Shown here: one piece after another, positions 2,621 through 35,877 of the stretch | Layout: each line of letters begins with the position of its first letter | Numbering within the stretch: position 1 is the first letter of the stretch | IMG/VR virus record: IMGVR_UViG_3300029888_000103 | From: a virus | Lineage: Duplodnaviria > Heunggongvirae > Uroviricota > Caudoviricetes | DNA: 35,877 nt | Reading direction: 5' to 3' (one strand) | Translations under genes and position numbers: made by a program | Notes under the pieces: model-generated | Databases searched by the model: none | What the model was told of the DNA's origin: nothing | The model's input: the letters and a program-made list of their open reading frames with translations, nothing else

Positions 2621-2732
2621 AACTGAAGTTGCCCTGAAAATGAAATTTTTTTGCACAACCGCAGAACTTTTCCGCAGGGCATCAGTCTTAATTAGTGCCA
2701 CTGCTTTTCTTTGATGTCCCCATTTTGTGGAG

Positions 2733-2779
2733 CCCATCAACCCCGCCATTTCGGTTCAAGGTTGATGGGTTTTTTGTTG
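2733..2779 (+). terminator. intrinsic terminator between ybjL and the prophage end
   Basis: 10-bp perfect stem CCCATCAACC...GGTTGATGGG followed by TTTTTTGTTG. Confidence 0.6.
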
Positions 2780-2855: not shown

Positions 2856-3074
2856 TCAAAGAGAGAGCGCCACCTGTCCTGATTTCATTGGATGCGGCTG
2901 AACCGGATTTGACTCTTTTGGCGTTGCAATCGAACGAACAAAAGTTTCATGGGTAACAAAAGTATGGCTGCAGTTAATGTTCTGGCACTGGTTGTAACGC
3001 TCTTTGGTCAATGAAGATACCTGAAAACTGCTGCGAGTATGGGCGGCACTTCCACACAGTGGGCAAATCATCAT
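2856..3074 (-). CDS. ogr: late-gene transcriptional activator (Ogr/Delta/B zinc-finger family)
   Basis: About 72 aa beginning MMICPLCGSAAHTRSS...YNQCQNINCSHTF, the Cys4 motif of P2 Ogr; GGGGAGA Shine-Dalgarno upstream of the ATG pair at 3074/3071. The ORF-track start at 3107 is a GTG and probably an over-extension. Confidence 0.85.
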   Translation of the reverse strand: MMICPLCGSAAHTRSSFQVSSLTKERYNQCQNINCSHTFVTHETFVRSIATPKESNPVQPHPMKSGQVALSL

Positions 3075-3164
3075 TTTTCGAGTTCTCCCCATTTTTGCTA
3101 AATTCACAATAATGATACCGCATTATTCCATTTTGCAAACTTAAAAGTTCTCCATTGCGAAGAA

Positions 3165-4265
3165 TCATTCCATTTCGAAATCATCAATCCTCACTTCAAG
3201 CTCCAGACTGGTTGTAAAACCGTTATCGGGGCTGACGGTATGCGTCAGAGTCGTAATGGTCCATTCCGCATCATCTATCGGCTGTTTAAAGCCACTGACT
3301 TTCACTGGCATTTCCGTGTAGAGATCTGCCCGACCTTCTGCCAGTTGTAGCGAGAATGACGCAACGCCGCGTTGCAGGCGTTCCCACTGCATTTTCGCCG
3401 CCCGTTCGGCGTTGCTCCGGTTGGCATAGGTGCGATTAAGTACCAGCACGTTTTCATCTGTACCCACCAGGTAATCGCCCTGCTTCGCTTCCGGCTCTTT
3501 CTTCTGCTTCTTAGTCCTGCGCTTACGCTTCACCGTGGTACTTTCTTTCTTCGCAGGTTCGCGGGTATGCAACCAGCTGGCAATTACGCCCGTGTAGGCT
3601 CCGCGATCTGCCAGGGTAAAGCGGTGACTGTCGCCGTCCTTGCGTGTGATAGTGATCACTGGCAGTGGTTTACCAGTGGCGTTTTTGCCCTGCCCCTGCC
3701 GGATGAATAACAGATTGCCATTTTTCACCGACGCGATGGCACCGTACTGTCGCGCCAGCCGCATCAGAAAACTGCCGTCACTCTCATTAGTCTGGTCTAT
3801 ATGCTCCACGGGTTTATCTGACAGGTCTTTACCCAGTGCCATCTTCAGCTTGTGCCGCGCGGCTATTTCCTTCACCACTTCCCCGACGGTGGTCTTATGC
3901 CACGATTTTTCACGGCGGGTATTCAACGTTTCCCGAAAATCAGCACTTCGCGCCCGGATAGTCAGGCGGTCCGGTGCGCCAGTGTGTTCAATCTCGTCCA
4001 CTGTGAATGCCCCTTTAGGGAAAAGCGGCTGCCCCTTCCAACCCAGCGCCAGCGTAATGACCGCACCACGGCGCGGCAGCACGATTTTTCCGTCAGCGTC
4101 GTCCAGCTCCAGATCAAGCTGGTCCGCTTCAAAGCCCCGGTTATCCGTCAGCGTCAAACTCATCAGGCGGTTATCCAGCACAGTGGTGATATCCCTGCCC
4201 TCAATACTGATGCTGAATGCGGGAGTTTTGTTGCCTTTGTTAAGCAGTTCAGAGCTGAAATTCAC
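3165..4265 (-). CDS. D: tail protein gpD
   Basis: 366 aa; position (between ogr and U) and length fit P2 gpD; start overlaps the U stop. Confidence 0.88.
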   Translation of the reverse strand: MNFSSELLNKGNKTPAFSISIEGRDITTVLDNRLMSLTLTDNRGFEADQLDLELDDADGKIVLPRRGAVITLALGWKGQPLFPKGAFTVDEIEHTGAPDRLTIRARSADFRETLNTRREKSWHKTTVGEVVKEIAARHKLKMALGKDLSDKPVEHIDQTNESDGSFLMRLARQYGAIASVKNGNLLFIRQGQGKNATGKPLPVITITRKDGDSHRFTLADRGAYTGVIASWLHTREPAKKESTTVKRKRRTKKQKKEPEAKQGDYLVGTDENVLVLNRTYANRSNAERAAKMQWERLQRGVASFSLQLAEGRADLYTEMPVKVSGFKQPIDDAEWTITTLTHTVSPDNGFTTSLELEVRIDDFEME

Positions 4266-10144: not shown

Positions 10145-10717
10145 TCAGGGGAATTCATTGCTCTTATTTGCCGGAAATTTTCTATAAATTGTGGAAACAC
10201 CTACATCAAAAATCAGTGCAATACGCTGTCTTGATTCTCCGGCCTCGAGTAAACGTCCAATCTGTGCCCACTGTTCGGTGGTCAACTTAGGACGGCGTCC
10301 ACCTACTCTGCCTTTGGCGCGAGCTGCAGCCAGCCCCGCCCTGGTACGTTCAACTATCAGTTCGCGCTCCATTTCAGCCAGGGCCCCCATGACATGAAAA
10401 AAGAAACGGCCCATTGGGGTACTGGTATCAATACTGTCAGTCAGGCTTCGGAAATTCACGCCACGCTGGCGCAGCTCTTCTATCAGCGTAACGAGATGCC
10501 GCATACTGCGCCCCAACCTGTCCAGCTTCCAGACAACCAGAGTGTCACCTGCCGATAGTGTCCTGAGTAGTTTTTTCAGCCCCGGTCTGTCGGACTTAGT
10601 GCCACTGATTTTGTCCTCAAAAATCCGCTCACATCCCGCGCAGTTCAGTGCATTACGTTGCAAATCGGTGTTCTGGTCATTTGTTGACACGCGTACATAG
10701 CCAATAAGCATGATCAT
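10145..10717 (-). CDS. serine DNA invertase (Hin/Gin/Pin family)
   Basis: N-terminal catalytic motif IGYVRVSTNDQ with the resolvase-family serine, and a C-terminal HTH (GVSTIYRKF); 190 aa; lies directly beside an invertible tail-fibre segment. Confidence 0.9.
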   Translation of the reverse strand: MIMLIGYVRVSTNDQNTDLQRNALNCAGCERIFEDKISGTKSDRPGLKKLLRTLSAGDTLVVWKLDRLGRSMRHLVTLIEELRQRGVNFRSLTDSIDTSTPMGRFFFHVMGALAEMERELIVERTRAGLAAARAKGRVGGRRPKLTTEQWAQIGRLLEAGESRQRIALIFDVGVSTIYRKFPANKSNEFP

Positions 10718-10738
10718 CCCCCTGAATAAAAACCGGAG

Positions 10739-11260
10739 ATGATGCCAGTTAGCTGTTACCTCTGCATTTTCTTAAACGTTGGTTTGGGAGAAGGCTCTGC
10801 ATTACCTGTTGGTGTGCCTGTTCCATGGCCTTCAGCCACACCGCCAACAGGCTGGCTGAAATGCAACGGTGCGGCTTTTTCTGCTGAAGAATACCCGGAA
10901 CTGGCAAAGGCTTATCCGACAAATAAATTGCCTGATTTACGTGGTGAGTTTATTCGTGGCTGGGATGACGGGCGCGGTATTGATGCAGGACGTGTTTTAT
11001 TGAGCATTCAGACAGGGATGCTGGAAAAACACCGCCATATTGTTGTTGCCAATGATGGTTACGACACAAAAGATGAATGGGAACTGGCTACGATTTTCAA
11101 AAAGACATACACACAAGGACGGGGACTTGATGCCACAAATACAGGAGGGAGTCTGATCCCATCACCGACACTTCATTCACGAGGGAGTATCGGTAATACT
11201 GGCGGGAGTGAAACCCGTCCACGAAATATTGCATTTAACTATATCGTGAGGGCTGCATAA
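10739..11260 (+). CDS. silent alternative tail-fibre C-terminal exon (joins H only after inversion)
   Basis: ORF continues through the crossover site; encodes LGLGEGSALPVG... and a tail-collar-like segment (AAFSAEEYPELAKAYPTNKLPDLRGEFIRGWDDGRGID). The GLGE junction matches the gpH sequence at the other crossover site. The part upstream of the crossover site (about 10795) is not expected to be translated. Confidence 0.6.
   Translation: MMPVSCYLCIFLNVGLGEGSALPVGVPVPWPSATPPTGWLKCNGAAFSAEEYPELAKAYPTNKLPDLRGEFIRGWDDGRGIDAGRVLLSIQTGMLEKHRHIVVANDGYDTKDEWELATIFKKTYTQGRGLDATNTGGSLIPSPTLHSRGSIGNTGGSETRPRNIAFNYIVRAA
10767..10794. repeat. invertase crossover site (left), pix/gix-like
   Basis: ttttcttaaacgttggtttgggagaagg; its reverse complement shares the core TTCTCCCAAACCAA with the site at 12607-12636. 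Confidence 0.7.
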
Positions 11261-11862
11261 TGGATAACGCCGTATTAAATAGCGAGCTTATTGCCACGAA
11301 GGCGGGGAATATTACCGTCTATAACTATGATGATAAAACTCGGGAATATATTTCTACTTCAAATGAATATCTTGCCATTGGTGTCGGTATCCCAGCATAT
11401 TCCTGTCTGGATGAACCTGGTATACATAAGGCGGGTTATGCTATCTGCCGTTCGATGGATTTAAACTCATGGGAATATGTGCCAGACCATCGCGGTGAAA
11501 TCGTCTATAACACCGAAACGGGAGACGCCAAAGAAATCACAGCTCCGGGTGATTATCCTGAAAATACAACCACTATCGCCCCGTTAACGCCATTCGATAA
11601 ATGGGATGGTAAGAAATGGGTGACCGATACTGAGGCACAGCATAGCGCCGCAGTAGACGCGGCAGAAGTACAGCGTCAGTCACTGATTAATACTGCAATG
11701 GCTTCCATCAGTCTGATTCAACTTAAATTGCAGGCCGGGCGGCAGCTGATGCAGGCAGAGACCACCCGACTTAACACTGTGCTGGATTACATTGACGCGG
11801 TGACGGCAACAGATACCAGCACAGCGCCGGATGTCATCTGGCCTGAACTGCCGGAGGCGTAG
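11260..11862 (+). CDS. alternative tail-fibre assembly chaperone (for the silent fibre tip)
   Basis: 200-aa ORF directly coupled to the alternative fibre exon; its C-terminal region is similar to the active-orientation gpG (…PELPEA versus …PTPPAV endings). Confidence 0.65.
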   Translation: MDNAVLNSELIATKAGNITVYNYDDKTREYISTSNEYLAIGVGIPAYSCLDEPGIHKAGYAICRSMDLNSWEYVPDHRGEIVYNTETGDAKEITAPGDYPENTTTIAPLTPFDKWDGKKWVTDTEAQHSAAVDAAEVQRQSLINTAMASISLIQLKLQAGRQLMQAETTRLNTVLDYIDAVTATDTSTAPDVIWPELPEA

Positions 11863-12271
11863 GCCATTCAATATCTGGCCCACTGGAGGTATCAACCAGC
11901 TCCAGTGCGTCCAGGTAATCCAGCCACAAATTATATTGCGCCAGTTCCTCGTCTTTCAGACGACCAATAGCGGCTTTACCGGGCCATTGTTTACTGTTCA
12001 TGTATTCGTTGGCCAGATTAAGCAATAATTGCCTTTCTGATTCTGCCTGTTGAATAAGTTCTTCATGTGATGGTGGAGGTATTAGTGCCCATGTGGGTAA
12101 TCCATTTTCTCCTGCAACACGAATTTTGCCATCTGGGGGCGTATTTATTGCAAATTCATTATAAACATCATCACTGACAGCCAGAGCATCATCTGGCCAT
12201 GAATTTGCATTAATGTAATCATCCTTAAGTGCAGGATTCACAAAAATGTTTAAAGATGGACTATAAAACAT
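11834..12271 (-). CDS. G: tail-fibre assembly protein gpG (active orientation)
   Basis: 145-aa ORF immediately downstream of H inside the invertible segment. Confidence 0.8.
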   Translation of the reverse strand: MFYSPSLNIFVNPALKDDYINANSWPDDALAVSDDVYNEFAINTPPDGKIRVAGENGLPTWALIPPPSHEELIQQAESERQLLLNLANEYMNSKQWPGKAAIGRLKDEELAQYNLWLDYLDALELVDTSSGPDIEWPTPPAVQAR

Positions 12272-24921: not shown

Positions 24922-24955
24922 AAAGCGCCTGCTACTGCAGGCGCTTTGTTTACTC
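24922..24955 (+). terminator. intrinsic terminator after Q
   Basis: 11-bp perfect stem AAAGCGCCTGC-tact-GCAGGCGCTTT followed by a T-rich stretch; overlaps the stop of the convergent 97-aa ORF. Confidence 0.65.
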
Positions 24956-25243
24956 TTTAACAAGTGTGCCCCATACCGAGTCTTCAACCTCTTCAACAAC
25001 AATATTGATGTTGCAAATAACATGGTCTTCACTTACTCGAGTATATCTGAATAACCTTGATTTCACTTTCCCACCAAACGACTCACGGTCTTTATTGTTG
25101 GTAATGTCGACATAATCCCCAACATTCGGAAGCATCAGGAGTGGATTGTCTTCCGAAGAACATCTTACAATCTCTCCATCATCAAGAGGTCGCGTATCCC
25201 CTTTACGTAAGTATTGAAAGTCATAGTTGTATATGGTTTTCAT
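24950..25243 (-). CDS. hypothetical 97-aa protein (cargo between cos and Q)
   Basis: ATG with an AGGA Shine-Dalgarno sequence; AT-rich ORF with no recognisable motif; convergent with Q. Confidence 0.5.
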   Translation of the reverse strand: MKTIYNYDFQYLRKGDTRPLDDGEIVRCSSEDNPLLMLPNVGDYVDITNNKDRESFGGKVKSRLFRYTRVSEDHVICNINIVVEEVEDSVWGTLVKE

Positions 25244-25613: not shown

Positions 25614-26486
25614 TTAAGCTCTCTTAATCAACCCCTTATGCGTTGCTTTGGTAAGATAAGCTAATTCTTTAGGCCCCTTATCTCTAAAGCCCACCCATTC
25701 TGGTTGGAATTTTATAAAACTTGGAATTGCGGTTGCCAAGGCTGTAACCATACCGGGAATAATACCGCCTGAATCACCAGCAATAGCAGCATGGTACAAC
25801 GGTTTTAAAAATTCCATAACCTGCCCACCATCTACTTCTGGATTAACTTTGACTCCCATTCTGATAGGATTTCTCCATTTCCCTTCGATAGCTTTATCAA
25901 GATTAACTACAGCCTCTTGTAATAAAGAAAAATTTTTAGCCCTCGTTAGATTAGGGTCTCTAGAATAAAGGACTTCAGTATACAGTTTTTCTAAGTACTC
26001 ATGTAACGCATTAAGATCATCCTGACAATCATCTTTAAAACGTAATATATCTTCTATATGAGCATCTTTATCAGGAATTCTCAGAACATTAAACAACTCC
26101 AATCTCAACTGAAGGGCCGTTTTCTGTTCTTTATCATATATTAAATTCTCCCCTGTTTGATGAAAGTGCCAATAAGTAGCAGGCTCGTTCTTCCTGAATT
26201 CATCCAATGTCTGCAACTGAAATTCCGTATATAAAAATGGAAAGTCTTGGATATTCAGCATACCATCATGTTTCATAATAGGTCTACGTAATACCCCATT
26301 ATCTAATAATTCTTTTTCTTTAGGCACAATCGAGTGAATATTTTCACTATCTAGAATAACCACATCATCCCAGTAAAAGCAGAAATAATTAATATCCTGC
26401 TCAGTTAAACCTGCCCCAAGATAGACCGTACTATTATTTCTATGAAAACTCATTTCATTAGGATTAGCTACAATGCCACGTTTCAT
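25614..26486 (-). CDS. uncharacterised 290-aa protein in the old/tin-equivalent accessory slot
   Basis: ATG at 26486 with a strong AAGGAG Shine-Dalgarno sequence (the ORF-track start at 26510 is a GTG); AT-rich; hydrophobic C-terminal segment (DSGGIIPGMVTALATAIPSFI); no motif I can assign. Confidence 0.6.
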   Translation of the reverse strand: MKRGIVANPNEMSFHRNNSTVYLGAGLTEQDINYFCFYWDDVVILDSENIHSIVPKEKELLDNGVLRRPIMKHDGMLNIQDFPFLYTEFQLQTLDEFRKNEPATYWHFHQTGENLIYDKEQKTALQLRLELFNVLRIPDKDAHIEDILRFKDDCQDDLNALHEYLEKLYTEVLYSRDPNLTRAKNFSLLQEAVVNLDKAIEGKWRNPIRMGVKVNPEVDGGQVMEFLKPLYHAAIAGDSGGIIPGMVTALATAIPSFIKFQPEWVGFRDKGPKELAYLTKATHKGLIKRA

Positions 26487-26697
26487 TCTTGCTCCTTGAT
26501 AAGCATACACATTTTAAGAATGACATATATTCTAATAATTTCAATACATTATGAGTTATAACTAAAAGTGCAGCATAGGTCTCGCCCTGATAGATAATCA
26601 AGTGATTACTGTCTTTTTACTTATGGTTAACGCCTCTCAAGGCTCGCGGTTCAACCTTGCTGACGCCAGAAGCAGGTTCAGACGCCAGCAACGTTTC

Positions 26698-26931
26698 TTA
26701 ATGCAACCAGCTGTCGTCTTCCCACACCTTCTGCATAATTTTCATCACTTGTTTTCTTTCTTCGTCCAGTTGCAATCCGGTAAGTTCCACACCGTTAGAG
26801 CTACCTTTGCGGATACGAATTACCGTTTTGGGATACAGGGGGCGCAGATTGCGGTAAAGCTCGGATTCAAGGGCGTCCAGTGTAGACTGGCTAATCTTCT
26901 GCTCTTTATCGATCATTATTTCAATGCGCAT
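26698..26931 (-). CDS. DinI-family protein (Tum C-terminal-like)
   Basis: 77 aa from MRIEIMIDKEQKISQSTLDALESELYRNLRPLYPKTVIRIRKGSSNGVELTG...WEDDSWLH, which parallels E. coli DinI (MRIEVTIAK...); GAGGTG Shine-Dalgarno sequence before the ATG at 26931. Confidence 0.75.
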   Translation of the reverse strand: MRIEIMIDKEQKISQSTLDALESELYRNLRPLYPKTVIRIRKGSSNGVELTGLQLDEERKQVMKIMQKVWEDDSWLH

Positions 26932-26941
26932 AAAAGTCACC

Positions 26942-27130
26942 TCAGCTGATGACATCCATTGAGCGGTTGTATTCGTGGGTTCTGATTTTTGCCATGAGTT
27001 CATCTGTCAGTTCAGAAACCCACTGCAGAGCCAGCCCCTTCTCTTCATCACTACACTCACTAGCCGCTACAAGCTTAAGAAAAAAATCAATGCGCTGGAG
27101 CTTCAAAGACTCCAAAAAATAGTCCTGCAT
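26942..27130 (-). CDS. small ORF (62 aa), possible N-terminal part of a Tum-like antirepressor
   Basis: ATG at 27130 preceded by AGGAGGAAAG; a LexA box lies 40-60 bp upstream; its 3' end overlaps the DinI-like frame. Confidence 0.5.
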   Translation of the reverse strand: MQDYFLESLKLQRIDFFLKLVAASECSDEEKGLALQWVSELTDELMAKIRTHEYNRSMDVIS

Positions 27131-27170
27131 CTTTCCTCCTATGACACCAAAGCAATACTGTATACATAAC

Positions 27171-27190
27171 CACTGTTTATATTTACAGTA
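27171..27190. promoter_or_regulatory. LexA operator (SOS box)
   Basis: cACTGTttatatttACAGTA = CTGT-N8-ACAG with an AT-rich spacer, matching the TACTGT(AT)4ACAGTA consensus; an additional half-site-like TACTGTATAC lies at about 27155-27168. Confidence 0.7.
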
Positions 27191-27282
27191 TATAATAATC
27201 TTACTGATGTAAAACGTTTTTTTACGCTCATCAGCCTGATATGCCTGGTATTATTAAGAGCACGAATTGTTAACCCGCGTAA

Positions 27283-29697
27283 TTAATACAGGTTTCGCCA
27301 CTTATCATCTTCCTGCAAACGCTGGTTCCGATAGAAGATACGCAGGCCTGCTCCTGACGGAATACTGCCGCCGCGAAGGAGTAAATCGACCTCTTTCTCG
27401 CTGCCATCAAATCCCCTGGACTTCAGTTCATACACGAGCTGCAGTCGCTGATGGTCTGTAATTCGCTGTTTGTAGTCTTTACGCCGTTTCGGTTTCACCA
27501 GGCGTAACCTTGCTGCCAGTTCCCGGCGCTCTTTTTTGCTCATACTGTGCAGGTAATCGTGCAACTCCTTGTCATCCATGCGGGTGATATCCGTTCTGGT
27601 ATCTCCATCAGCTGATTTGTCTTTCCCTTGTTGGTACAAATTTTCAGCAAGGGGACAGTTATTGCCACGAGTCCAAGGGGCGCAAGCGCCCTGGTCGGCT
27701 GCCGCCTCCTGAACGTCAACGGCCTTACGAACCATTTTCCACTTCACTGCATGAGTGCAGATCTTGCCCTCTGCAATGGGTGACCAGATGCCATAAATAC
27801 GAATACCGTGATCGCCATAGGCGGTTGGCTCTTCGTTGATTTCATAAGCGGTTCTGATGAGGTGATATTTGCGGGGAACCAGTACGCCGCCCTGCTTCAT
27901 GATGTAGGTGGCAAAACAACCAGCATCAGCAGCAGCCAGAATGGCATCAAGACGCGGGTTATCCAGTACCGGCGCACCTGCTTTTTTGTCACCCTGTTGC
28001 CTTGCCGCCTGACCAGCCAGCAAGCGAAGTTCACGGTAAGCCTGACGTCCCGGAATACCAAAGAAGCGGAATTGCTGAACACGATGCAGAGACGCCCAGG
28101 CATTAACGTATTCAGCGTTATCACGCAGGGATTTACCCGTTTCCTTGCTGATCTCGCCAGCCAGACCACGCCCGTCAATGTTCTTACTGATGTATTTCGC
28201 GATGTAGCTTGTCGGCGTTCCTTTGCGCGGGTTTATCAGCTCAGATTTAAAGCGTGGACCAGTGTTATTACCCAGTTCCTCGCGGTCTTCACGGATGGCA
28301 AACTTACGCAACAATGCAGTAATGGCGCGGCGGTCTTTTTTGCGCATGAAACACAACAGGTGCCAGTGAACTGTACCGTCATGATGCGGCTCAGCCACCC
28401 GCACGCCATACCAGCGCAACCCGGCTTTGTGCATCGCCTTACGAAATGCAGCAAACATGCCGACCAGATAATCGCTGCTTTGTCTTACCGTCGCATTTGT
28501 CCAGGTTGGGTTTGGTCTGCCGTTATTGAGCGTGGAATGGAAACGTGACGGACAGGTAATGGTGTAGAAAACGGCGCAGTCACCGCGCATTTCCGCGATA
28601 AGCTCCAGACCTTTAACACAGGCCATCATCTCATTGCGGCGGTGCGCCGGGTTGCTGCTGCTGGCGTTTACCACGTCTTCCATATCCAGCGTGTCGCCCT
28701 CTTCGTTCACCAGTTCATGAGAACGGAAAAACTCCAGTGACTTGCGGCGCTGCTCACGTTTATGCATCACGGCTTCATAGCTGACATAGGGAGATGCTTT
28801 TTTGCTGACCAGGCAGACAGCACGCAACTGCTCTTCCCGCCATTCGCAACGCATTTTCCATAATTTCCGGTACCACCAGTCGGCGCACAACATACGCGCC
28901 AGCGAACCCGGAATGAGTTCATAGGGCACGGGTTTACGGCGGTTTCTTTTCCGACGGAGTTGCTCAAACGCAGGCGGGATGACATCCAGACGCAGGGTTT
29001 CCGCTGCCACCTTTTCCCATGTCTTGCGGATTTCTTCTGGCTTAACGTCATCGGTGGCATACAAATCACCACAAGCTGCATCAAGGCACATGCTCATATG
29101 CGCAGCGACAAGGGTAGACAGGCGTTTCACCTGATCCTGACTCATTTCAGGCAGAATCAGCAGGCCGTCCAGCCCTACATGGCTTGCCATAAAACGAAAA
29201 GATGCAGATAGCTGGCTGTCGCGTACATGCTCCAGTCGTTCCAGACATGGCTTAATCGTCTCACGTAAATAGCGGGAATAAGCCTTTGGCCTGCCCAGGC
29301 TGCTGAAGTATTCAATACGTTGCATCAGCGGCTTGCTGATATGGGAGGGCTGGGCGCTGACGTCTGCCAGAATGACCATGTCCGGGTTAAAACGCTGCTG
29401 CTCATGCGCCAACTTTGCCCGGCTAATGAGCTTATCCTGCTCTATTTCGCGTTGGACAGGATCACGGGATTCATTAAAGAAATAACGCTCCCAGACCTGA
29501 TCACTCAGTGCCTCGCGGCGCAGTTGTTCCTGCTCGTTATCGGCAGCGTACAGAGTGATCAGGTTTGAAAGCGCAGAAACCGGCGCAACTTCCGCCGGGT
29601 CCAGATAAGGGTTAATGGCCTTTTTCGGGCTGTTCCATGAGAACGATGCGGCAGCCTCGTTAAAGCCGCAGCAGTTGCTCATATCGGCATGGCTCAT
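27283..29697 (-). CDS. A: replication initiation protein gpA (rolling-circle initiator family)
   Basis: 804-aa ORF in the gpA position of the early operon; start overlaps the stop of the upstream methylase gene. Confidence 0.88.
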
Positions 29698-30551
29698 GCA
29701 CGTACTCCGTACACGGCAGAACTATCCACGCCACGCGAATAATCAAATCCCACCCAGCAGCGCGGCCCGGAAACAGCAATGATTTCTGTTGCTGATTTAC
29801 TCTCACCAGCTGCTACGCCGATGCTGCGTTTTACCTTGATATAGTGGTGAGTAAAATTGCGATACAGCGAACGGATCAGGGATGTGTCACTGTTAGAAAC
29901 AATGACCGGATGTCCTTCTGATGACCGATGTTCAAGAACGGATGCCAGGTGATACTGGTCATCTTCAGTAAAGCCGTCAGCGTGATAGCCGGAAAACGTA
30001 CCGTCATAAGGCGGATCGCAATACACCACATCCCCCGCCTTCAACATCGCCAGCGTTTCATCAAAGCTGGCGCAGATAAACGTTGCTCGCTGGGCTTTTT
30101 CTGCAAAAGCGCGAATTTCTTTTTCAGGGAAATACGGATTTTTATAATTACCGTAGGGAATGTTGAAATGCCCGCTCTTGTTATAGCGACATAACCCACG
30201 GTAACCGTGACGATTGAGATACAGGAAATATACCGCTTTCATGAAATCAGTAATTTCAGTTGAGTAATTAAACTCCTGCCTTATGTTGTAATAAGCCACC
30301 TCCCTGTTTGCGATCTCAAATAAAACTTTGGCGCGAGATATAAACGATTCACAATCAGCGGCAACCTTTTTATAGAGGTTGATTAAATCAGGATTAATAT
30401 CCGCAACCAGATAGCAGGGATAATCCGTCTCCATCATCACAGCACAGGAACCCGCGAAAGGTTCAACTAGTCGCGGACCAGCAGGAAGATGTTTTTTCAG
30501 TTCGGACATTACGGCGGTTTTATTTCCCGCCCATTTCAAGATGGTGCTCAT
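29694..30551 (-). CDS. DNA N6-adenine methyltransferase (Dam-like)
   Basis: DPPY catalytic motif ([10 protein letters not shown]) and N-terminal AdoMet-binding region (LKWAGNK...EPFAGSCAV); ATG at 30551 with a GGAGGTG Shine-Dalgarno sequence. Confidence 0.85.
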
Positions 30552-30775
30552 ACAGCACCTCCGTTGTAATGTTTGCCTTTCAGCTCTGCGATTTCCTGAC
30601 ATGTAATGCAAAGCTGCACACCCGGAATGGCACGGCGGCGTGCTGGCGGAATTGGCGCTTCACACTCAACGCAAAGCACGCGGGACACGCCCGGCGTTTT
30701 GGCACGGGCAGCACGGATATGGCGCTGGCGTTCTTCTTCAACGCGCTGCTGTACGAGATCCATTGCATCAGCCAT
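30548..30775 (-). CDS. TraR/DksA-family C4 zinc-finger protein
   Basis: 75 aa with CxxC...CxxC (CVECEAPIP...CITCQE); 4-nt overlap with the methylase start. Confidence 0.72.
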   Translation of the reverse strand: MADAMDLVQQRVEEERQRHIRAARAKTPGVSRVLCVECEAPIPPARRRAIPGVQLCITCQEIAELKGKHYNGGAV

Positions 30776-31014
30776 TAGTGGATCTCCTGCGCTTCGTTCT
30801 GGATTGCTTCAGCAGTCACACGCAGCAGTTCTGCCGCTTCCACGTGGTTTAGCTGACGGGATGAGATATGACACGCCAGGCTATCAAGGCGAGCTGCCAT
30901 TGCTTCAGCCCTTGCCCGGCGTTCTTCCAGACGAGCCTCTGTCAGTAAAATATTAAGCCCTGCGTCATCCGGTCCGGTTTTAGTCGTGAGGGTTTCAATA
31001 TTACGCATAATCAA
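30775..31014 (-). CDS. hypothetical early-operon protein
   Basis: 79-aa ORF translationally coupled to the downstream gene; no motif recognised. Confidence 0.5.
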   Translation of the reverse strand: MIMRNIETLTTKTGPDDAGLNILLTEARLEERRARAEAMAARLDSLACHISSRQLNHVEAAELLRVTAEAIQNEAQEIH

Positions 31015-31075
31015 TTCTCCTGAATTTAGATAAAGGGATGCCCGGCGGGTTTACGCCATTAATTTCATTAGTTGG

Positions 31076-31417
31076 TTAATTCGGCATGGTTAGCCGTCTG
31101 GGAAATAAGCTCACCACTGCACGAAAATGATTCATTGCTTTAATCAGCTCCCGCTTTTCGTCAGTGGTCAGCTCATTAATGCTGATGCTATGACGTTCAG
31201 CTGGAATTTTTGCCATAAAGAATATGGCAGCCAGTGCTCGTTTATTTTGTTCATTATTGATATCCCGTGGATCACGCATATCTTTAATAAACCGCTCAAG
31301 CTCTGACTCAATATTCAGGCCAAAAACTTTCGCCCTTAACTCCGCAATGTGATTAAGTCCATTCAGGCGTTCACCGGGGCTTAATGGAACAGTTGCCGCA
31401 GCGCCTTCAATAGCCAT
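31076..31417 (-). CDS. hypothetical early-operon protein
   Basis: 113-aa ORF in the operon; no motif recognised. Confidence 0.5.
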   Translation of the reverse strand: MAIEGAAATVPLSPGERLNGLNHIAELRAKVFGLNIESELERFIKDMRDPRDINNEQNKRALAAIFFMAKIPAERHSISINELTTDEKRELIKAMNHFRAVVSLFPRRLTMPN

Positions 31418-31581
31418 TTGTTCCCCCGTTTTTTCGTAGATAGTTCTGCCAGCAATTCATCCTGTGAACGGCACGGATGCCAGCGTTTACCATCCTCCCC
31501 CATGATCCAGCCGTGACCGTAGTGCATTGCCGGGCTTTGTTTTACCAGCAGCGATGCAAATGATGGTTCTTTCGTCAGCAT
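31381..31581 (-). CDS. hypothetical small protein
   Basis: 66 aa from the ATG at 31581 (MLTKEPSF...), 7 nt after the cII stop, with a GAGGTG Shine-Dalgarno sequence. Confidence 0.45.
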   Translation of the reverse strand: MLTKEPSFASLLVKQSPAMHYGHGWIMGEDGKRWHPCRSQDELLAELSTKKRGNKWLLKALRQLFH

Positions 31582-31588
31582 AAGCACC

Positions 31589-32098
31589 TCACAGCAAACC
31601 GAATGAAGCACCGAGGCCAGTAACGGTATCAACTGCACTCGCCATCGCAGGATTAGCCTGTAAACGGGCCTGCAATGAAACAGCGGCCAGCGCCATCAGC
31701 CGTGTTACAGAGTTAATGCTGCTGATAGCATCACGACGACCTGCACTGGTTTTTACATCGCCGGATACCGCACCTGCAGCAACACGCCCGATCTCTGCGG
31801 TTGCACTCATGACATAATGCGGCAGTTTCTCTTTTGCCACCTCATTAATCGGTACACATGGCAGGCAGTGAATCTGTGCCAGAAAGCCATCTACCAGCGT
31901 TGAATCTTCAGTCAGATCGGTAAGCAACCAGATTTCTGGTGCGGTTAATAAATGAGGTTGAGCTGGGTTCAGCTTGTTCCGCAGAATCTGTACATTCATG
32001 CCTGCACGTTCTGCCAGTTGCACCAGGTTGTGGCGCAGTGCGAATGCACGACAGGCTTCGTCAAAATGTGGATGTTTGGAAACTTGGTAATCAAACAT
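31589..32098 (-). CDS. cII: CII-like transcriptional activator (186 type)
   Basis: 169 aa from [45 protein letters not shown]..., matching my recollection of phage 186 CII including the HTH; follows apl. Confidence 0.8.
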
Positions 32099-32130
32099 AG
32101 TCGACACCCCTGATGTATCCCAAAATGGAA

Positions 32131-32352
32131 CTAGTTGAATACAACATTGCAATCAGTAAGTGCATCAACGGTAAGAGCAGCAAGGTTGATCATTACCTTT
32201 TCTCTTTTCTTGTCTTTCCGAAGGCGATGGCGAGGGATGCGACCATCAGCCAGCATATCGTTGATGGTGTCGATAGAAAGACCAGTAAGTTCGCTATAAC
32301 GCTCAATTGTGACATGTGGCGTATTCAGAGTTATTGAAATGTTAGGGGTCAT
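32131..32352 (-). CDS. apl: Apl/Cox-type excisionase and lytic-promoter repressor (HTH)
   Basis: 73 aa from [44 protein letters not shown]; first gene of the rightward early operon, divergent from cI; GGAG Shine-Dalgarno sequence. Confidence 0.65.
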
Positions 32353-32400
32353 GATGCAACATCTCCTATTGGCTTGTGGTGAGCCTGTAGTAATCGTGAC

Positions 32401-32472
32401 AAGTACCCAAATGGGGACAAAATTGATACTAGGATCGCAAAAGAGATATGTCAACATCAAAGTACCCAAATG
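32401..32472. promoter_or_regulatory. direct repeats in the immunity switch region (candidate operator elements)
   Basis: AAGTACCCAAATG occurs twice (32401-32413 and 32460-32472), 59 bp apart, flanking the candidate promoter. Confidence 0.4.
32426..32454 (-). promoter_or_regulatory. candidate early lytic promoter (pR-like)
   Basis: Minus strand reads TTGACA-17 nt-TAGTAT; the -35 overlaps the cI start codon, so a bound repressor or polymerase here would couple the two transcription units. Confidence 0.5.
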
Positions 32473-33044
32473 AGATCAAAATAAATCCCAATAAAGGTGG
32501 TAAGGCTGCGATTGAGCGATTAGTCGAAGCTTATGGCTTTACGACACGACAGGCTTTAGCTGATCACTTGGAAGTATCAAAAAGCACTCTGGCGAACAGG
32601 TATTTGCGGGATACGTTTCCTGCAGACTGGATAATCCAATGTGCTCTTGAAACAGGAACCTCACTGAAATGGTTAACCACCGGGCAAGGCCTTAAGCAAA
32701 GCTCGCTGACAGCAGCTACAGAAGAGCTTGCCAAGTTTCGCCTTACCGCAGGCAAAATGATTGAAGATGGTTCATATGTCTTCGATTCATCATTTCTTCC
32801 TGCAAATCTTTCATCACCAATTGTTATTCAGGATGGGCTCGTCACATACATTTGTGATCAAAAATTTTCTGAAGTACTTGATGGGCACTGGTTAATCAAC
32901 ATCGACGGAACCTATTCCATTCGAAAAATCACAAAGCTTCCAAAAGGTATGATTAAAATTACAAGTACAGAGAATAGCTTTGAATGTGCATTTTCTGATA
33001 TTGAAGTAGTTGCTTGTATAAGAAGTACAATAGTTTCAAATTAA
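32448..33044 (+). CDS. cI: CI immunity repressor (186 type)
   Basis: 198 aa; N-terminal HTH region (…AIERLVEAYGFTTRQALADHLEVSKSTLANRY…ALETGTSLKWLTTGQG) and a C-terminal domain, like 186 CI in length and organisation. Confidence 0.85.
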   Translation: MSTSKYPNEIKINPNKGGKAAIERLVEAYGFTTRQALADHLEVSKSTLANRYLRDTFPADWIIQCALETGTSLKWLTTGQGLKQSSLTAATEELAKFRLTAGKMIEDGSYVFDSSFLPANLSSPIVIQDGLVTYICDQKFSEVLDGHWLINIDGTYSIRKITKLPKGMIKITSTENSFECAFSDIEVVACIRSTIVSN

Positions 33045-33064
33045 TATAGTAAAAGGATTTAAAA

Positions 33065-34741
33065 ATGAATTCATTTTCCATCGTTATATTCTTATTAGCA
33101 TTTCTCGCCCCCATTCTAGCTGTAATATTATTTAAGCAAAGCAAAAAACATAAAGCGGCTATAAATACCTTGACAGCTAACAACATAGCCCTTTCCAACC
33201 AACTGAAAGAAAATCAAGAAGAATTAGCACAGACTGTACGAGAACTATCAGAGCTTGAAGGACGAGCTGCGCCATTATGGCAATACGTAGAATTGCACAG
33301 CGCAGTGATGGAAGCAGAGAATAAGATAAAAAATGCAGACTCAATAGCCAGGCAAAAAATAGAAGAAGCCCAAATAAAGGCTGCTAAGACAGTAAACGAA
33401 GCAAATTATCAAGCTCAGATAAAAATAAGCAACGCTAATAGCGAAGCTATAGCAATTACTAAAGACGCTCGCGATGCACGCCTGAAAGCTAAAGAACGTC
33501 TTGATAATGCCAATAGTAAAGCAAATGAGCTGATCTCAAATGCTAATGACAATGCAGTGAAAATTATTTCCGATGCAGAAGAAAGAGCAAAAGAGATTGC
33601 TGGTTCAGCATATGAAGCTAAAGAGTTTGCAGAAAAATATGAAGCAGTTGCCAAATCAATGAAAAATAAAATTGAAGGTTATGGTGATGAATGGATCATC
33701 CCTAACCGTAGCGTTCTCGATGAATTGGCAGAAAATTATGAGTTTACAGATGCAGGTAAGGAATTACAAAAAGCCAGGGAGTTAACAAAATCATTAATAA
33801 AAACTAATAAAGCTGCTTCGTGTGATTATGTTGAACAAAACAGGCGTAATACTGCTATCAACTTTGTTTTAGATGCCTTCAATGGAAGAGTTGACAGTAT
33901 TTTATCAAAAGTCAAACACAACAATTTTGGAAAACTTTCCCAAGAGATAAAAGATGCGTTTCAACTTGTAAATTACAATGGTTCTGCCTTTAGGTCCGCA
34001 AAAATAAGTGACATCTATCTTCAAGCTCGACTCAACGAGCTAAAATGGGGAGTTGCAGTTAATGAAATTATGCTCGAAGAAAAAGAAGAGCAAAGAAGGA
34101 TTAAAGAACAACTTCGTGAAGAGGAAAGAGCTCGTAGGGAGTATGAAAAAGCGATAAAAGAAGCTGAAAAAGAAGAGAAAGCTATTCAGCAAGCTATAAA
34201 TAAAGCAACAAAAGAGCTTATGCTTGCAAATGAAGAACAACGCTTAGCTTTAGAGCAAAAAATAGCTGAACTACAGTTAAAATATGAAGAAGCTGAAGCT
34301 AAAAACCAACGAGCTATTTCTATGGCTCAACAAACTAGATCAGGCCACGTTTATATAATTAGTAATATTGGCTCATTTGGCGAAGATGTATATAAAATTG
34401 GAATGACACGCCGCCTTGAACCACTTGATCGTGTTCGTGAACTCGGTGATGCTAGTGTTCCTTTTTCGTTCGATGTTCATGCGATGATTTATAGTGATGA
34501 TGCACCATCATTAGAAAATCATCTGCATAAAGTCTTCAACGAAAAACAGGTCAATAAAATTAACTCACGAAAAGAGTTTTTCAACGTAAATATTAAAGAA
34601 ATTAAGTCTGTTATTGAAGATATGAACATCAACGCACAATGGACAATGTTTGCGGAAGCGAAAGAATATAGAGAGTCACTGGCGATTGAGCAAGAGCGCA
34701 AAGCAGCAACTTCCGCCAACGATGAACTGCATGTTGCTTAG
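33065..34741 (+). CDS. membrane-anchored coiled-coil protein with DUF4041-like and T5orf172/GIY-YIG-like C-terminal module (cargo)
   Basis: 558 aa; N-terminal TM helix (FSIVIFLLAFLAPILAVILF), about 250 aa of A/K/E/N/Q-rich heptad-like sequence, and a C-terminal region GHVYIISN...VYKIGMTRRLEPLDRVRELG...FDVHAMIYSDDAPSLENHLHKVF that I recognise as T5orf172-like; AAGGA Shine-Dalgarno sequence; 20 bp after the cI stop. Confidence 0.8.
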   Translation: MNSFSIVIFLLAFLAPILAVILFKQSKKHKAAINTLTANNIALSNQLKENQEELAQTVRELSELEGRAAPLWQYVELHSAVMEAENKIKNADSIARQKIEEAQIKAAKTVNEANYQAQIKISNANSEAIAITKDARDARLKAKERLDNANSKANELISNANDNAVKIISDAEERAKEIAGSAYEAKEFAEKYEAVAKSMKNKIEGYGDEWIIPNRSVLDELAENYEFTDAGKELQKARELTKSLIKTNKAASCDYVEQNRRNTAINFVLDAFNGRVDSILSKVKHNNFGKLSQEIKDAFQLVNYNGSAFRSAKISDIYLQARLNELKWGVAVNEIMLEEKEEQRRIKEQLREEERARREYEKAIKEAEKEEKAIQQAINKATKELMLANEEQRLALEQKIAELQLKYEEAEAKNQRAISMAQQTRSGHVYIISNIGSFGEDVYKIGMTRRLEPLDRVRELGDASVPFSFDVHAMIYSDDAPSLENHLHKVFNEKQVNKINSRKEFFNVNIKEIKSVIEDMNINAQWTMFAEAKEYRESLAIEQERKAATSANDELHVA

Positions 34742-34799
34742 CAATGTATGTTTCATAGTAATCACACATTGATTACTGGTTGTATATACAGTTAAATTT

Positions 34800-34824
34800 A
34801 GCCCTCTGATATGAGGGCTTTTTT
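34800..34824 (+). terminator. intrinsic terminator abutting the int start codon
   Basis: AGCCCTC-tgatat-GAGGGCT followed by TTTTT, then immediately the int ATG at 34825. Confidence 0.6.
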
Positions 34825-35877
34825 ATGGCAGTACGAAAACTCACCACAGGAAAATGGCTTTGCGAATGTTACCCCGCCGGACGTAGTGGACGTCGTGTGC
34901 GTAAACAATTCGCCACCAAAGGCGAAGCTCTGGCTTTTGAGCGTCACACGATGGAAGAAACCGAAGCAAAGCCCTGGCTGGGTGAATCAGTGGATCGTCG
35001 AACACTGAAAGACGTGGTTGAACTATGGTTCAAACTACATGGTAAATCTCTGACAGCTGGGCAGCATGTCTATGACAAATTGCTGTTGATGGTTGACGCT
35101 CTGGGCAATCCTCTTGCAACCGATCTCACCTCTAAAATGTTTGCCCACTATCGAGATAAACGCCTGACAGGCGAGATCTACTTCAGCGAGAAATGGAAGA
35201 AAGGAGCAAGCCCGGTCACCATTAACCTGGAGCAAAGCTATCTAAGTAGTGTTTTTAGCGAACTATCCCGTCTGGGCGAATGGTCGTATCCGAACCCACT
35301 GGAGAACATGCGAAAATTCACCATCGCAGAAAAAGAGATGGCATGGCTTACCCATGAGCAGATTGTTGAATTGCTGGCTGATTGCAAACGTCAGGACCCA
35401 ATTCTGGCACTGGTAGTTAAGATATGCTTAAGCACAGGCGCACGCTGGCGTGAAGCCGTAAATCTTACTCGCTCACAGGTGACCAAATACCGAATTACCT
35501 TTGTCAGAACGAAGGGGAAGAAAAACAGAAGCATCCCTATCAGTAAAGAGCTTTACGAAGAGATCATGGCGCTTGATGGGTTCAATTTCTTCACAGACTG
35601 CTATTTTCAATTTTTATCCGTGATGGAAAAAACGTCTATCGTGCTCCCTCGCGGTCAACTCACACACGTTCTGCGCCATACGTTTGCGGCGCACTTCATG
35701 ATGTCGGGTGGAAACATTCTGGCCTTACAAAAAATTCTCGGACACCACGATATAAAAATGACTATGCGTTACGCACATCTGGCACCGGATCATCTGGAAA
35801 CGGCGCTCCGTTTCAATCCTCTGGCAACGCTGCCAAGTGGCGACAAAGTGGCGGCAGCGGTTGGCATTACCCCGTAA
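34825..35877 (+). CDS. int: tyrosine integrase (P2/186 Int family)
   Basis: 350 aa; N-terminal MAVRKLTTGKWLCECYP...KQFATKGEALAFERHT parallels P2 Int (MAIKKLDDGRYEVDIRPTG...KFDKKSEAVAFEKYT); C-terminal catalytic region with ARWREA..., HVLRHTFAAHFMMSGG and RYAHL motifs; the stop codon is the last triplet of the window. Confidence 0.92.
   Translation: MAVRKLTTGKWLCECYPAGRSGRRVRKQFATKGEALAFERHTMEETEAKPWLGESVDRRTLKDVVELWFKLHGKSLTAGQHVYDKLLLMVDALGNPLATDLTSKMFAHYRDKRLTGEIYFSEKWKKGASPVTINLEQSYLSSVFSELSRLGEWSYPNPLENMRKFTIAEKEMAWLTHEQIVELLADCKRQDPILALVVKICLSTGARWREAVNLTRSQVTKYRITFVRTKGKKNRSIPISKELYEEIMALDGFNFFTDCYFQFLSVMEKTSIVLPRGQLTHVLRHTFAAHFMMSGGNILALQKILGHHDIKMTMRYAHLAPDHLETALRFNPLATLPSGDKVAAAVGITP

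Follow-up and report, generated by a model that had tools for sequence, protein, structure and literature searches.

We analysed the lysis–lysogeny region of a P2-family (Peduoviridae) prophage contained in a 35,877-nucleotide stretch of viral DNA, IMG/VR record IMGVR_UViG_3300029888_000103 (hereafter the window; positions are counted from its first letter). Positions 1-2778 are host DNA, with a glutaredoxin gene, ybjM, a ybjL-type permease gene and the small RNA gene rybB, and the prophage extends from the late activator gene to the integrase gene, int; the window ends with the int stop codon. The immunity repressor gene cI is read towards int, with a homologue of the defence gene SNIPE between the two; in the opposite direction lie apl, cII and the early operon, beyond which there is an SOS-type induction module (Table 1). 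The open reading frames (ORFs), the promoter, the repeat and the LexA box listed in an initial annotation of this DNA are all present. Very probably, this is a Fels-2-like prophage whose module for immunity, early functions and integration works like the switch of phage 186. The region has the standard P2/186 switch design and belongs to a common Fels-2-like prophage of E. coli, with an uncharacterised immunity type of a well-known kind.

The repressor has the two domains of 186 CI, a helix-turn-helix (HTH) N-terminal domain and a wheel-forming C-terminal domain. It is 33% identical to 186 CI over 172 amino acids (aa) and matches the PDB entries 2FJR (1.6e-27), which is 186 CI, and 2FKD. CII is 69% identical to its 186 counterpart, and the predicted CII-binding inverted repeat, recognized by homology to the annotated 186 site, is invariant between 186, Fels-2 and the window. 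We could not identify a −10 element of pE at the cII 5′ end. The Apl-like protein matches 186 Apl over just 20 aa and has no Pfam match. The rest of the early operon (27283-31581) has the same gene order in Fels-2, with 68-90% aa identity. The 186-CI domains, CII with its binding site, and the LexA boxes with a split tum gene (see below) place CI, CII and the LexA/Tum-type induction module with those of 186, as the initial annotation had proposed. The switch is not of the P2 type, as it has CI, CII and tum, and neither cI nor cII of the window gives a tblastn match in P2. As a side observation, the CI proteins of Klebsiella phage 4LV2017 (locus L002, 6562-7503, 313 aa) and of locus L047 (1204-2082) carry two tandem copies of the 186-CI HTH domain, which is unusual for the family.

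Table 1. Positions of the genes and of the observed and predicted control elements in the window.
Feature	Position	Strand	Details
cI, immunity repressor	32448-33044	+	198 aa; PF07022 8e-32, PF16452 4e-27 (both 186-CI domains)
apl-like gene	32131-32352	-	73 aa; Cox-like excisionase/repressor; phrog_575, 1e-31
cII	31589-32098	-	169 aa; PF06892 3e-42
pR, predicted early lytic promoter	32454..32426	-	-35 TTGACA 32454-32449, 17-nt spacer, -10 TAGTAT 32431-32426; predicted start ~32419
pL candidate, lysogenic promoter	32334..32362	+	-35 TTGAAA 32334-32339, 17-nt spacer, -10 CAACAT 32357-32362; predicted start ~32369
Left operator-like site	32401-32423	+	core CCCAAATGGGGA, 32406-32417; over predicted pR start
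Middle operator-like site	32436-32447	+	core CGCAAAAGAGAT; in pR spacer, over the cI Shine–Dalgarno sequence
Right operator-like site	32460-32482	+	core CCCAAATGAGAT, 32465-32476; in cI codons 5-12
Predicted CII-binding inverted repeat	32072-32098		ATGTTTG-N13-CAAACAT; over cII start
Tandem LexA boxes in tum promoter	27156-27190	-	strong 27171-27190 (23.3 bits), weaker 27156-27175 (16.1 bits)
TumA-like ORF	26942-27130	-	62 aa; phrog_698; probable antirepressor
DinI-like TumB	26698-26931	-	phrog_189/PF06183
int-proximal control module	34769-34824	+	-35 TTGATT 34769-34774; -10 TTAAAT 34792-34797
int LexA box	34774-34793	+	TACTGGTTGTATATACAGTT; fills the 17-nt spacer of the promoter-like site
int hairpin	34800-34819	+	AGCCCTC/GAGGGCT; stable by folding; followed by a T6 run into the int ATG
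int, tyrosine integrase	34825-35877	+	350 aa; PF24624, PF00589
SNIPE / PD-lambda-1 homologue	33065-34741	+	558 aa; PADLOC PD-Lambda-1 4e-120; Pfam
fil-like gene	31381-31581	-	early operon
DUF5347 gene	31076-31417	-	early operon
DUF2732 gene	30775-31014	-	early operon
TraR/DksA zinc-finger gene	30548-30775	-	early operon
dam	29694-30551	-	early operon
Replication gene A	27283-29697	-	early operon
Ogr/B-type late activator	2856-3107	-	PF04606; directly after gene D (3165-4265, -)
rybB, host RybB small RNA	2700-2778		full-length; adjoins prophage; Rfam scan

The early lytic promoter, pR, is predicted to drive apl-cII-fil-...-dam-A and is the best promoter-like match between positions 26500 and 35877 (10 of 12 positions). 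Promoter-like matches are not enriched in this interval (7 found, 13.4 expected), so the assignment of pR draws on its position, conservation and homology and not just on the match. Its hexamers are invariant in seven of eight relatives, the single exception being one change in the −10. The −35 (32449-32454) overlaps the cI ATG (32448-32450) by 2 nucleotides (nt), and the initial annotation saw in this overlap a physical coupling of the lytic promoter to the start of repressor translation. The overlap is real and conserved, but it supports such a coupling only in name: transcription from pR is predicted to begin ~29 nt before the cI ATG and to head away from it, and the transcript is not antisense to the cI ribosome-binding site. 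Nothing indicates translational coupling of pR and cI. In the Pe promoter of P2 (TTGACA-17-TAGTAT), the −35 occupies +2 to +7 relative to the start codon of C, and both the hexamers and the offsets of pR in the window are identical to it. The same overlap (ATG-TCA-A on TTGACA) is found in 4LV2017 and in ST11 Klebsiella phages, and a one-base overlap in Xenorhabdus prophages; in 186, the pR −35 lies 14 bp from the cI ATG, where the annotated CI-binding region begins. Judged by these comparisons, the overlap is an old trait of the P2 family, the textbook arrangement of P2 Pe and C, and not a special coupling device. It is a shared layout, and says nothing for membership in the P2 type of switch.

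The facing lysogenic promoter, pL, was assigned by positional homology. The annotated pL of 186 (TTGCGA-17-CATGAT) has the apl ATG in its spacer; the pL candidate of the window is at the homologous place, with the apl start codon (32350-32352) likewise in the spacer, and Fels-2, Cartapus and 4LV2017 have the same layout. The candidate lies within a stretch that is 100% conserved among relatives. The predicted starts of pR and pL would face each other ~50 bp apart; in P2-like phages, the face-to-face promoters are typically 40-60 bp apart (PMC7498355). Two points weigh against this assignment. The candidate matches the consensus at only 8 of 12 positions, and a second site on the same strand, GTGACA-16-CAAAAT (32396-32423), might serve as pL instead. 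We ranked the second site lower, as it has no counterpart in 186, Fels-2 or Cartapus.

Around pR, the sequence AAGTACCCAAATG occurs exactly twice in the whole window, once at 32401 and once at 32460. The similarity between these copies, 59 bp apart, continues over 23 nt at 87% identity; by a rough estimate, the chance of an exact 13-mer repeat within ~200 bp is ~3e-4. These two exact copies had been described as a direct repeat flanking the promoter, but they are better seen as two of three operator-like sites (Table 1). The three cores start at 32406, 32436 and 32465 on one strand, that is, with spacings of 30 and 29 bp; the left and right copies share the core CCCAAATG(G/A)G, while the middle one is degenerate (CGCAAAAGAG). 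With up to two mismatches allowed, the right-hand 12-mer has four sites in the window (71.8 kb, both strands), one of which is the middle site, and only two others fall outside the trio. The right core is identical at 9 of 10 positions to the palindromic central pR operator of 186 (CCCAATTGAG), which lies in the pR spacer as the central one of the three operators annotated at pR in 186. These 186 operators, two turns apart, bind adjacent dimers of the CI wheel, and three-turn spacing is seen at FL′ (PMC3675496).

To what the repeats belong can be seen from the Klebsiella phage ST11-OXA48phi15.3. Over cII, apl and pL, as far as ~32399, it has 98% identity with the window, and the two sequences part exactly at the beginning of the left copy (window ~32399; L047 ~1105), a sharp recombination breakpoint between pL/apl and pR/cI. 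The Apl proteins of the two phages are 100% identical and their CI proteins 50% identical, and in place of the repeats of the window the Klebsiella phage has TCACAwwwCG three times, at 20 and 29 bp. The repeats thus change with cI while Apl stays identical, which argues that they go with cI and not with apl. The three-site layout and the 29-bp distance from the middle to the right site are kept, despite the different sequence. The three sites are most likely CI operators. A second recombination breakpoint, at the apl stop (~32132), is seen in comparison with RE2010 and Cartapus.

The conservation of the region was followed in six relatives with CI 81-86% identical (from Klebsiella, Silvania, Dryocola, Raoultella, Citrobacter and one further enterobacterium). 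Positions 32325-32490 form a conserved island, with 88-100% identity among the relatives over a DNA background of 75-85%, and the first ~15 codons of cI (1-15) show no synonymous variation, whereas the downstream codons vary. This bears on the possibility that the repeats are a non-functional duplication, or are kept solely by protein-coding and promoter constraints. The right copy is indeed coding sequence, and no part of the island varies more than the left copy (0.886 identity), which is substituted at position 5 of the 13-mer in most relatives. However, both copies and the middle site persist in hosts of six genera at this level of CI divergence, the first cI codons show, as said, no synonymous change, and a second immunity type has the same three-site layout with another sequence, so we give this explanation very little credence. 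It is also highly improbable that the repeats are binding sites of the Cox-like Apl rather than of CI. Direct repeats situated between the two promoters are known targets of Cox and Apl proteins (PMC7498355); one copy, the left, does lie in that interval, and the copies are direct and not obviously palindromic. Yet the phage with an identical Apl lacks these repeats and has another repeat along with another cI; the spacings are 29-30 and 59 bp instead of 10-11 bp; the right copy, within cI and on the upstream side of pR, falls beyond the zone that Apl usually occupies; and the core resembles the 186 CI operator.

Several observations nevertheless weigh against reading the region as a 186-like switch. 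The 30/29-bp spacing of the three sites differs from the two-turn spacing of 186, and CI types that have different flanking repeats possess almost the same recognition helix. Scans with the 13-mer and 12-mer cores found no distal CI sites of the FL/FR or pB kind above chance outside 32401-32482, and a 6-mer search between pL and pR, for repeats shared with the phage attachment (attP) region of phage KP12, returned no convincing Apl-type repeats with a 10-11-bp period. All the promoter starts and operator assignments for this phage are, moreover, predictions from sequence. One candidate distal site, CCCAAAATGGAA (32119-32130), at the position of 186 FR between apl and cII, was rejected: the segment that holds it is the one least conserved in relatives that have the same cI, a phage with another type of cI shares it as well, and it is probably a chance match.

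The initial annotation had further interpreted the prophage as a mosaic, a 186-type switch and SOS module on a P2-type late and structural backbone. We compared the genes of the window one by one with P2, 186 and Fels-2 (tblastn; aa identities), the comparison which that annotation had suggested, and found the backbone no closer to P2 than to 186. The structural and replication genes are 80-97% identical to Fels-2 and ~40-69% identical to both P2 and 186. Identities to P2 and 186, respectively, are 55 and 56% for D, 53 and 58% for the tail tube (FII), 68 and 69% for the sheath, 59 and 59% for the capsid, 63 and 63% for the terminase, and 62 and 61% for the portal, while all six proteins are 84-97% identical to their Fels-2 homologues (87-97% for D, sheath, capsid and terminase). 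For D, U, FII, sheath, J, N, O, P and Q the two values differ by only a few points, and the late genes are no nearer P2 than 186. Replication protein A is 31% identical to that of P2, 35% to that of 186 and 90% to that of Fels-2; the late activator is 55% identical to P2 Ogr, 54% to 186 B and 62% to the Fels-2 homologue. As the backbone is equidistant from P2 and 186 but close to Fels-2, this is a Fels-2-like phage.

The gene order leads to the same picture. The late activator directly after D had been taken as a mark of P2, but in the annotated 186 record B also directly follows D. Nor do the Dam and TraR-like genes of the early operon signal a mosaic: 186 has a DksA-like zinc-finger ORF in its early operon, P2 also carries a zinc-finger ORF of the DksA/TraR type, and Dam is present in Fels-2. 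The order in the window is that of Fels-2 throughout (ogr, D ... DinI, 62-aa ORF, A, Dam, DksA zinc finger, DUF2732, DUF5347, fil, cII, apl, cI, int). The window departs from Fels-2 in its cassette for immunity and integration (Apl 21%, CI 40% and Int 54% identity) and in its cargo genes.

It is therefore very unlikely that the prophage is a true mosaic that arose by transfer of the switch and SOS module of a 186-type phage to a P2-type backbone, with a novel compact switch coupling the lytic promoter to repressor translation as the outcome. Such a reading could point to CI, CII and tum of the 186 type; to the geometry of pR and the cI ATG, identical to that of P2 Pe and C, which amounts to a P2-like promoter frame with a 186-type repressor; and to an immunity cassette swapped relative to Fels-2 in a phage otherwise 80-97% identical to it. 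However, the backbone is Fels-2-like, the proposed marks of P2 are found in 186 as well, the predicted pR transcript misses the ribosome-binding site of cI, and the entire architecture already exists in Fels-2. Exchange of modules between regulatory regions and late genes of P2-like phages was described in 2011, as was a ‘Fels-2 group' with a 186-type region (PMC3448106). As posed, the proposal re-describes the known 186/Fels-2 arrangement and has little significance.

For induction, the prophage has an SOS module of the Fels-2 kind. The only exact match to CTGT-N8-ACAG in the window (0.44 expected) is at 27173-27188, upstream of the 62-aa and DinI-like ORFs, and a weight matrix recognizes tandem LexA boxes here (Table 1). 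The matrix was built from E. coli SOS boxes, and its scores are approximate; the best score in 200 shuffles was 19.2 bits. The promoter is nearly identical to that of Fels-2 and aligns with 186 p95. The two ORFs (26698-27130), which lie just outside the left coordinate of the region as initially delimited, together correspond to tum: the DinI-like ORF is 41% identical to the C-terminus of 186 Tum, and the 62-aa ORF aligns weakly with its N-terminal half and with PSP3 TumA. In Fels-2 and PSP3 tum is likewise split, and the upstream half is an antirepressor (PMC3121763); by analogy, the 62-aa TumA-like protein is probably one too. Against a simple match of antirepressor to repressor, the TumA-like protein does not co-vary with CI type (loci including L002, L005, L007 and L045): the ORF is 98-100% identical in Fels-2 and 4LV2017, though their CIs are 40-45% identical to that of the window, and only ~48-55% identical in L005, L007 and L008, where CI is 84-86% identical (~48% in two loci with CI 84-85% identical). 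Either the antirepressor targets a conserved surface of CI, or many of these recombinants are mismatched.

We noted a second putative site of LexA control, immediately upstream of int. The integrase is 54% identical to those of 186 and Fels-2 and 35% identical to that of P2. The LexA box before int has the highest score in the window (24.2 bits; 23.3 for the tum box) and takes up the whole spacer between promoter-like hexamers; next comes a hairpin whose 3′ arm (GAGGG) is the only Shine–Dalgarno-like sequence for int. This ~65-bp module is kept upstream of int in relatives, even behind unrelated cargo genes. In these relatives the CTG/CAG arms of the LexA box are kept while the inner bases vary, and in 4LV2017 the change in one arm of the hairpin is matched by a change in the other. 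The module is absent from the int leaders of P2 and PSP3. We found no report of LexA-regulated int in the P2 family in the literature searched, an incomplete library whose silence is not proof of novelty.

The module suggests that int expression is SOS-dependent and insulated from the cI transcript. It is possible, though we put it forward only tentatively, that int is uncoupled from the cI operon in the following way. The hairpin would act both as a terminator and as an anti-Shine–Dalgarno structure that silences int on read-through, and a LexA-repressed promoter starting in the 5′ arm of the hairpin would give a hairpin-free, translatable int messenger RNA only during the SOS response. Excision by Int, derepression by TumA and the synthesis of Apl would then be triggered together, and the same TumA-like antirepressor would serve CI types that are 40-45% identical. 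If so, the shared antirepressor would allow cross-induction of heteroimmune Fels-2-like prophages. It counts against this proposal that an int gene dependent solely on a LexA-repressed promoter would leave Int expression at infection unexplained. In integrons, LexA-controlled integrase promoters also have the LexA box within the promoter of a tyrosine recombinase gene and tie recombination to the SOS response (PMC3108266); here the gene is a phage integrase, and the box appears to be combined with a terminator/anti-Shine–Dalgarno hairpin separating int from upstream transcription. The module suggests a testable device for SOS-dependent integrase expression.

Taken together, the elements could work as follows. 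In the lysogen, a weak pL would transcribe cI and the SNIPE gene, and CI, probably a multimer of the 186 type, would bind the three sites at the pR start, within its spacer and next to the −35 on the upstream side, shutting off pR and relieving interference on the facing pL. At infection, pR would express Apl, CII, the Fil-like protein, Dam and replication protein A, and CII, by binding the conserved site at its own 5′ end, may bring about a burst of cI transcription; the site is seen in the sequence and its function is presumed. Upon DNA damage, LexA cleavage would open the tum promoter and the TumA-like protein would inactivate CI; here too the boxes are seen, and the function is extrapolated from Fels-2, PSP3 and 186. 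The overlap of the −35 with the cI ATG would be a compaction inherited in the P2 family, the first ~15 codons of cI doubling as promoter and operator DNA. More tentatively, the terminator/anti-Shine–Dalgarno hairpin would insulate int from the cI transcript, and int would be expressed from its own LexA-repressed promoter starting inside the 5′ arm of the hairpin.

The borders of the prophage point to its attachment site. A 14-bp core, ATGGGTTTTTTGTT, forms the 3′ end of rybB (2765-2778) and occurs again past int (L049 7850-7870); E. coli L73 carries the same prophage followed by rcdA, ybjJ and ybjI. The presence of the core at both ends of the prophage indicates that integration takes place in the rybB terminator, which the phage restores. 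By this repeat, the predicted integration site is the 3′ end of the host rybB gene, within its terminator. Host RybB was the only RNA gene recovered by Rfam and tRNA scans of the window. We found no report of rybB as an attachment site of P2-like phages in the literature searched, which, being an incomplete library, does not prove novelty. DNA 96% identical to the prophage has been deposited as Klebsiella phage KP12 and Escherichia phage vB_EcoM-813R9, and near-identical copies of the apl-cI-SNIPE cassette are present in 165 of 5,426 complete E. coli genomes (~1 in 33).

The SNIPE gene starts 20 bp past cI, is AT-rich (GC content 33-39%), is found with this type of cI in each of the seven related loci and probably shares a transcript with cI. 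SNIPE nucleases are anchored in the membrane and cleave the DNA of an infecting phage while it is being injected (PMC13190303). Like described SNIPE/PD-lambda-1 proteins (PMC13190303, PMC9519451), the product has an N-terminal hydrophobic transmembrane helix (FSIVIFLLAFLAPILAVILF), DUF4041 and a C-terminal T5orf172/GIY-YIG nuclease domain, and also a coiled coil; its role here would likewise be defence. The described defence hotspots of P2 are the A-Q interval and the fun/Z locus, whereas here the gene is in the lysogenic operon between cI and int. This placement in the repressor operon adds a third site for cargo genes to the two hotspots described for P2-like prophages. Relatives L002, L007, L008 and L010 have other, unassignable cargo between cI and int; the cargo ORFs of L008 and L002 and PSP3 orf28 gave no PADLOC matches, and those of L008 and L002 no Pfam matches.

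Two other regions are of note. An AT-rich ORF of 298 aa with DUF6236 (25614-26510, and also 24950-25243; phrog_23128) lies in the A-to-portal interval, which in P2-like phages is the classical old/tin hotspot for defence genes; the ORF has no PADLOC match and is absent from P2, 186, Fels-2 and PSP3. A DNA invertase of the Cin/Gin type (10145-10717) lies, as in Fels-2, beside alternative tail-fibre and assembly ORFs, and together they (10145-12271) are probably a host-range inversion switch.

The points worth experiment are solely the int control module and the natural chimeric switches. The window and ST11-OXA48phi15.3 form a natural chimeric pair, with the same Apl and pL and different CI and operators, that can be used for dissecting operator recognition by wheel-type CI repressors.

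Of the known switches, that of 186 shares with the window a two-domain CI of the same Pfam families, the identical CII-binding site, a pR predicted to face a candidate pL whose spacer contains the apl ATG, a trio of operator-like sites around pR of which one falls between its hexamers, and a LexA box before the tum module. The two differ in that the CIs are only distantly alike and BLAST detects no similarity between the Apl proteins; here the cI ATG is overlapped by the −35 of pR, from which it is separated in 186; the predicted start-to-start distance is ~50 bp here and 62 bp in 186; the sites are spaced by about three turns here and by two in 186; and tum is split in two here. The window also has a defence gene and a separate int control module between cI and int, and FL/FR sites were not found in it. 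With Pe/Pc of P2 it shares the promoter hexamers, their spacing and the position of the −35 on the repressor ATG, and the P2 operators, too, are direct repeats. However, C of P2 is an unrelated repressor of 99 aa, P2 lacks cII and tum and cannot be induced, it has two operators of 8 bp, placed on either side of the −10 at 22 bp, and Pc lies wholly upstream of cox.

Also among the closest known systems are the Salmonella prophage Fels-2 (Felsduovirus) and PSP3, which share the gene order from ogr to int, the high identity of the late and replication genes, Dam, the DksA zinc finger, DUF2732 and DUF5347, and a near-identical LexA-box promoter; the TumA-like ORF of Fels-2 is 98% and its DinI-like ORF 100% identical to those of the window. 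In contrast to Fels-2, where int directly follows cI without a SNIPE gene and without the LexA/hairpin module, the immunity cassette here has been replaced, and the attachment site differs, being rybB in the window.

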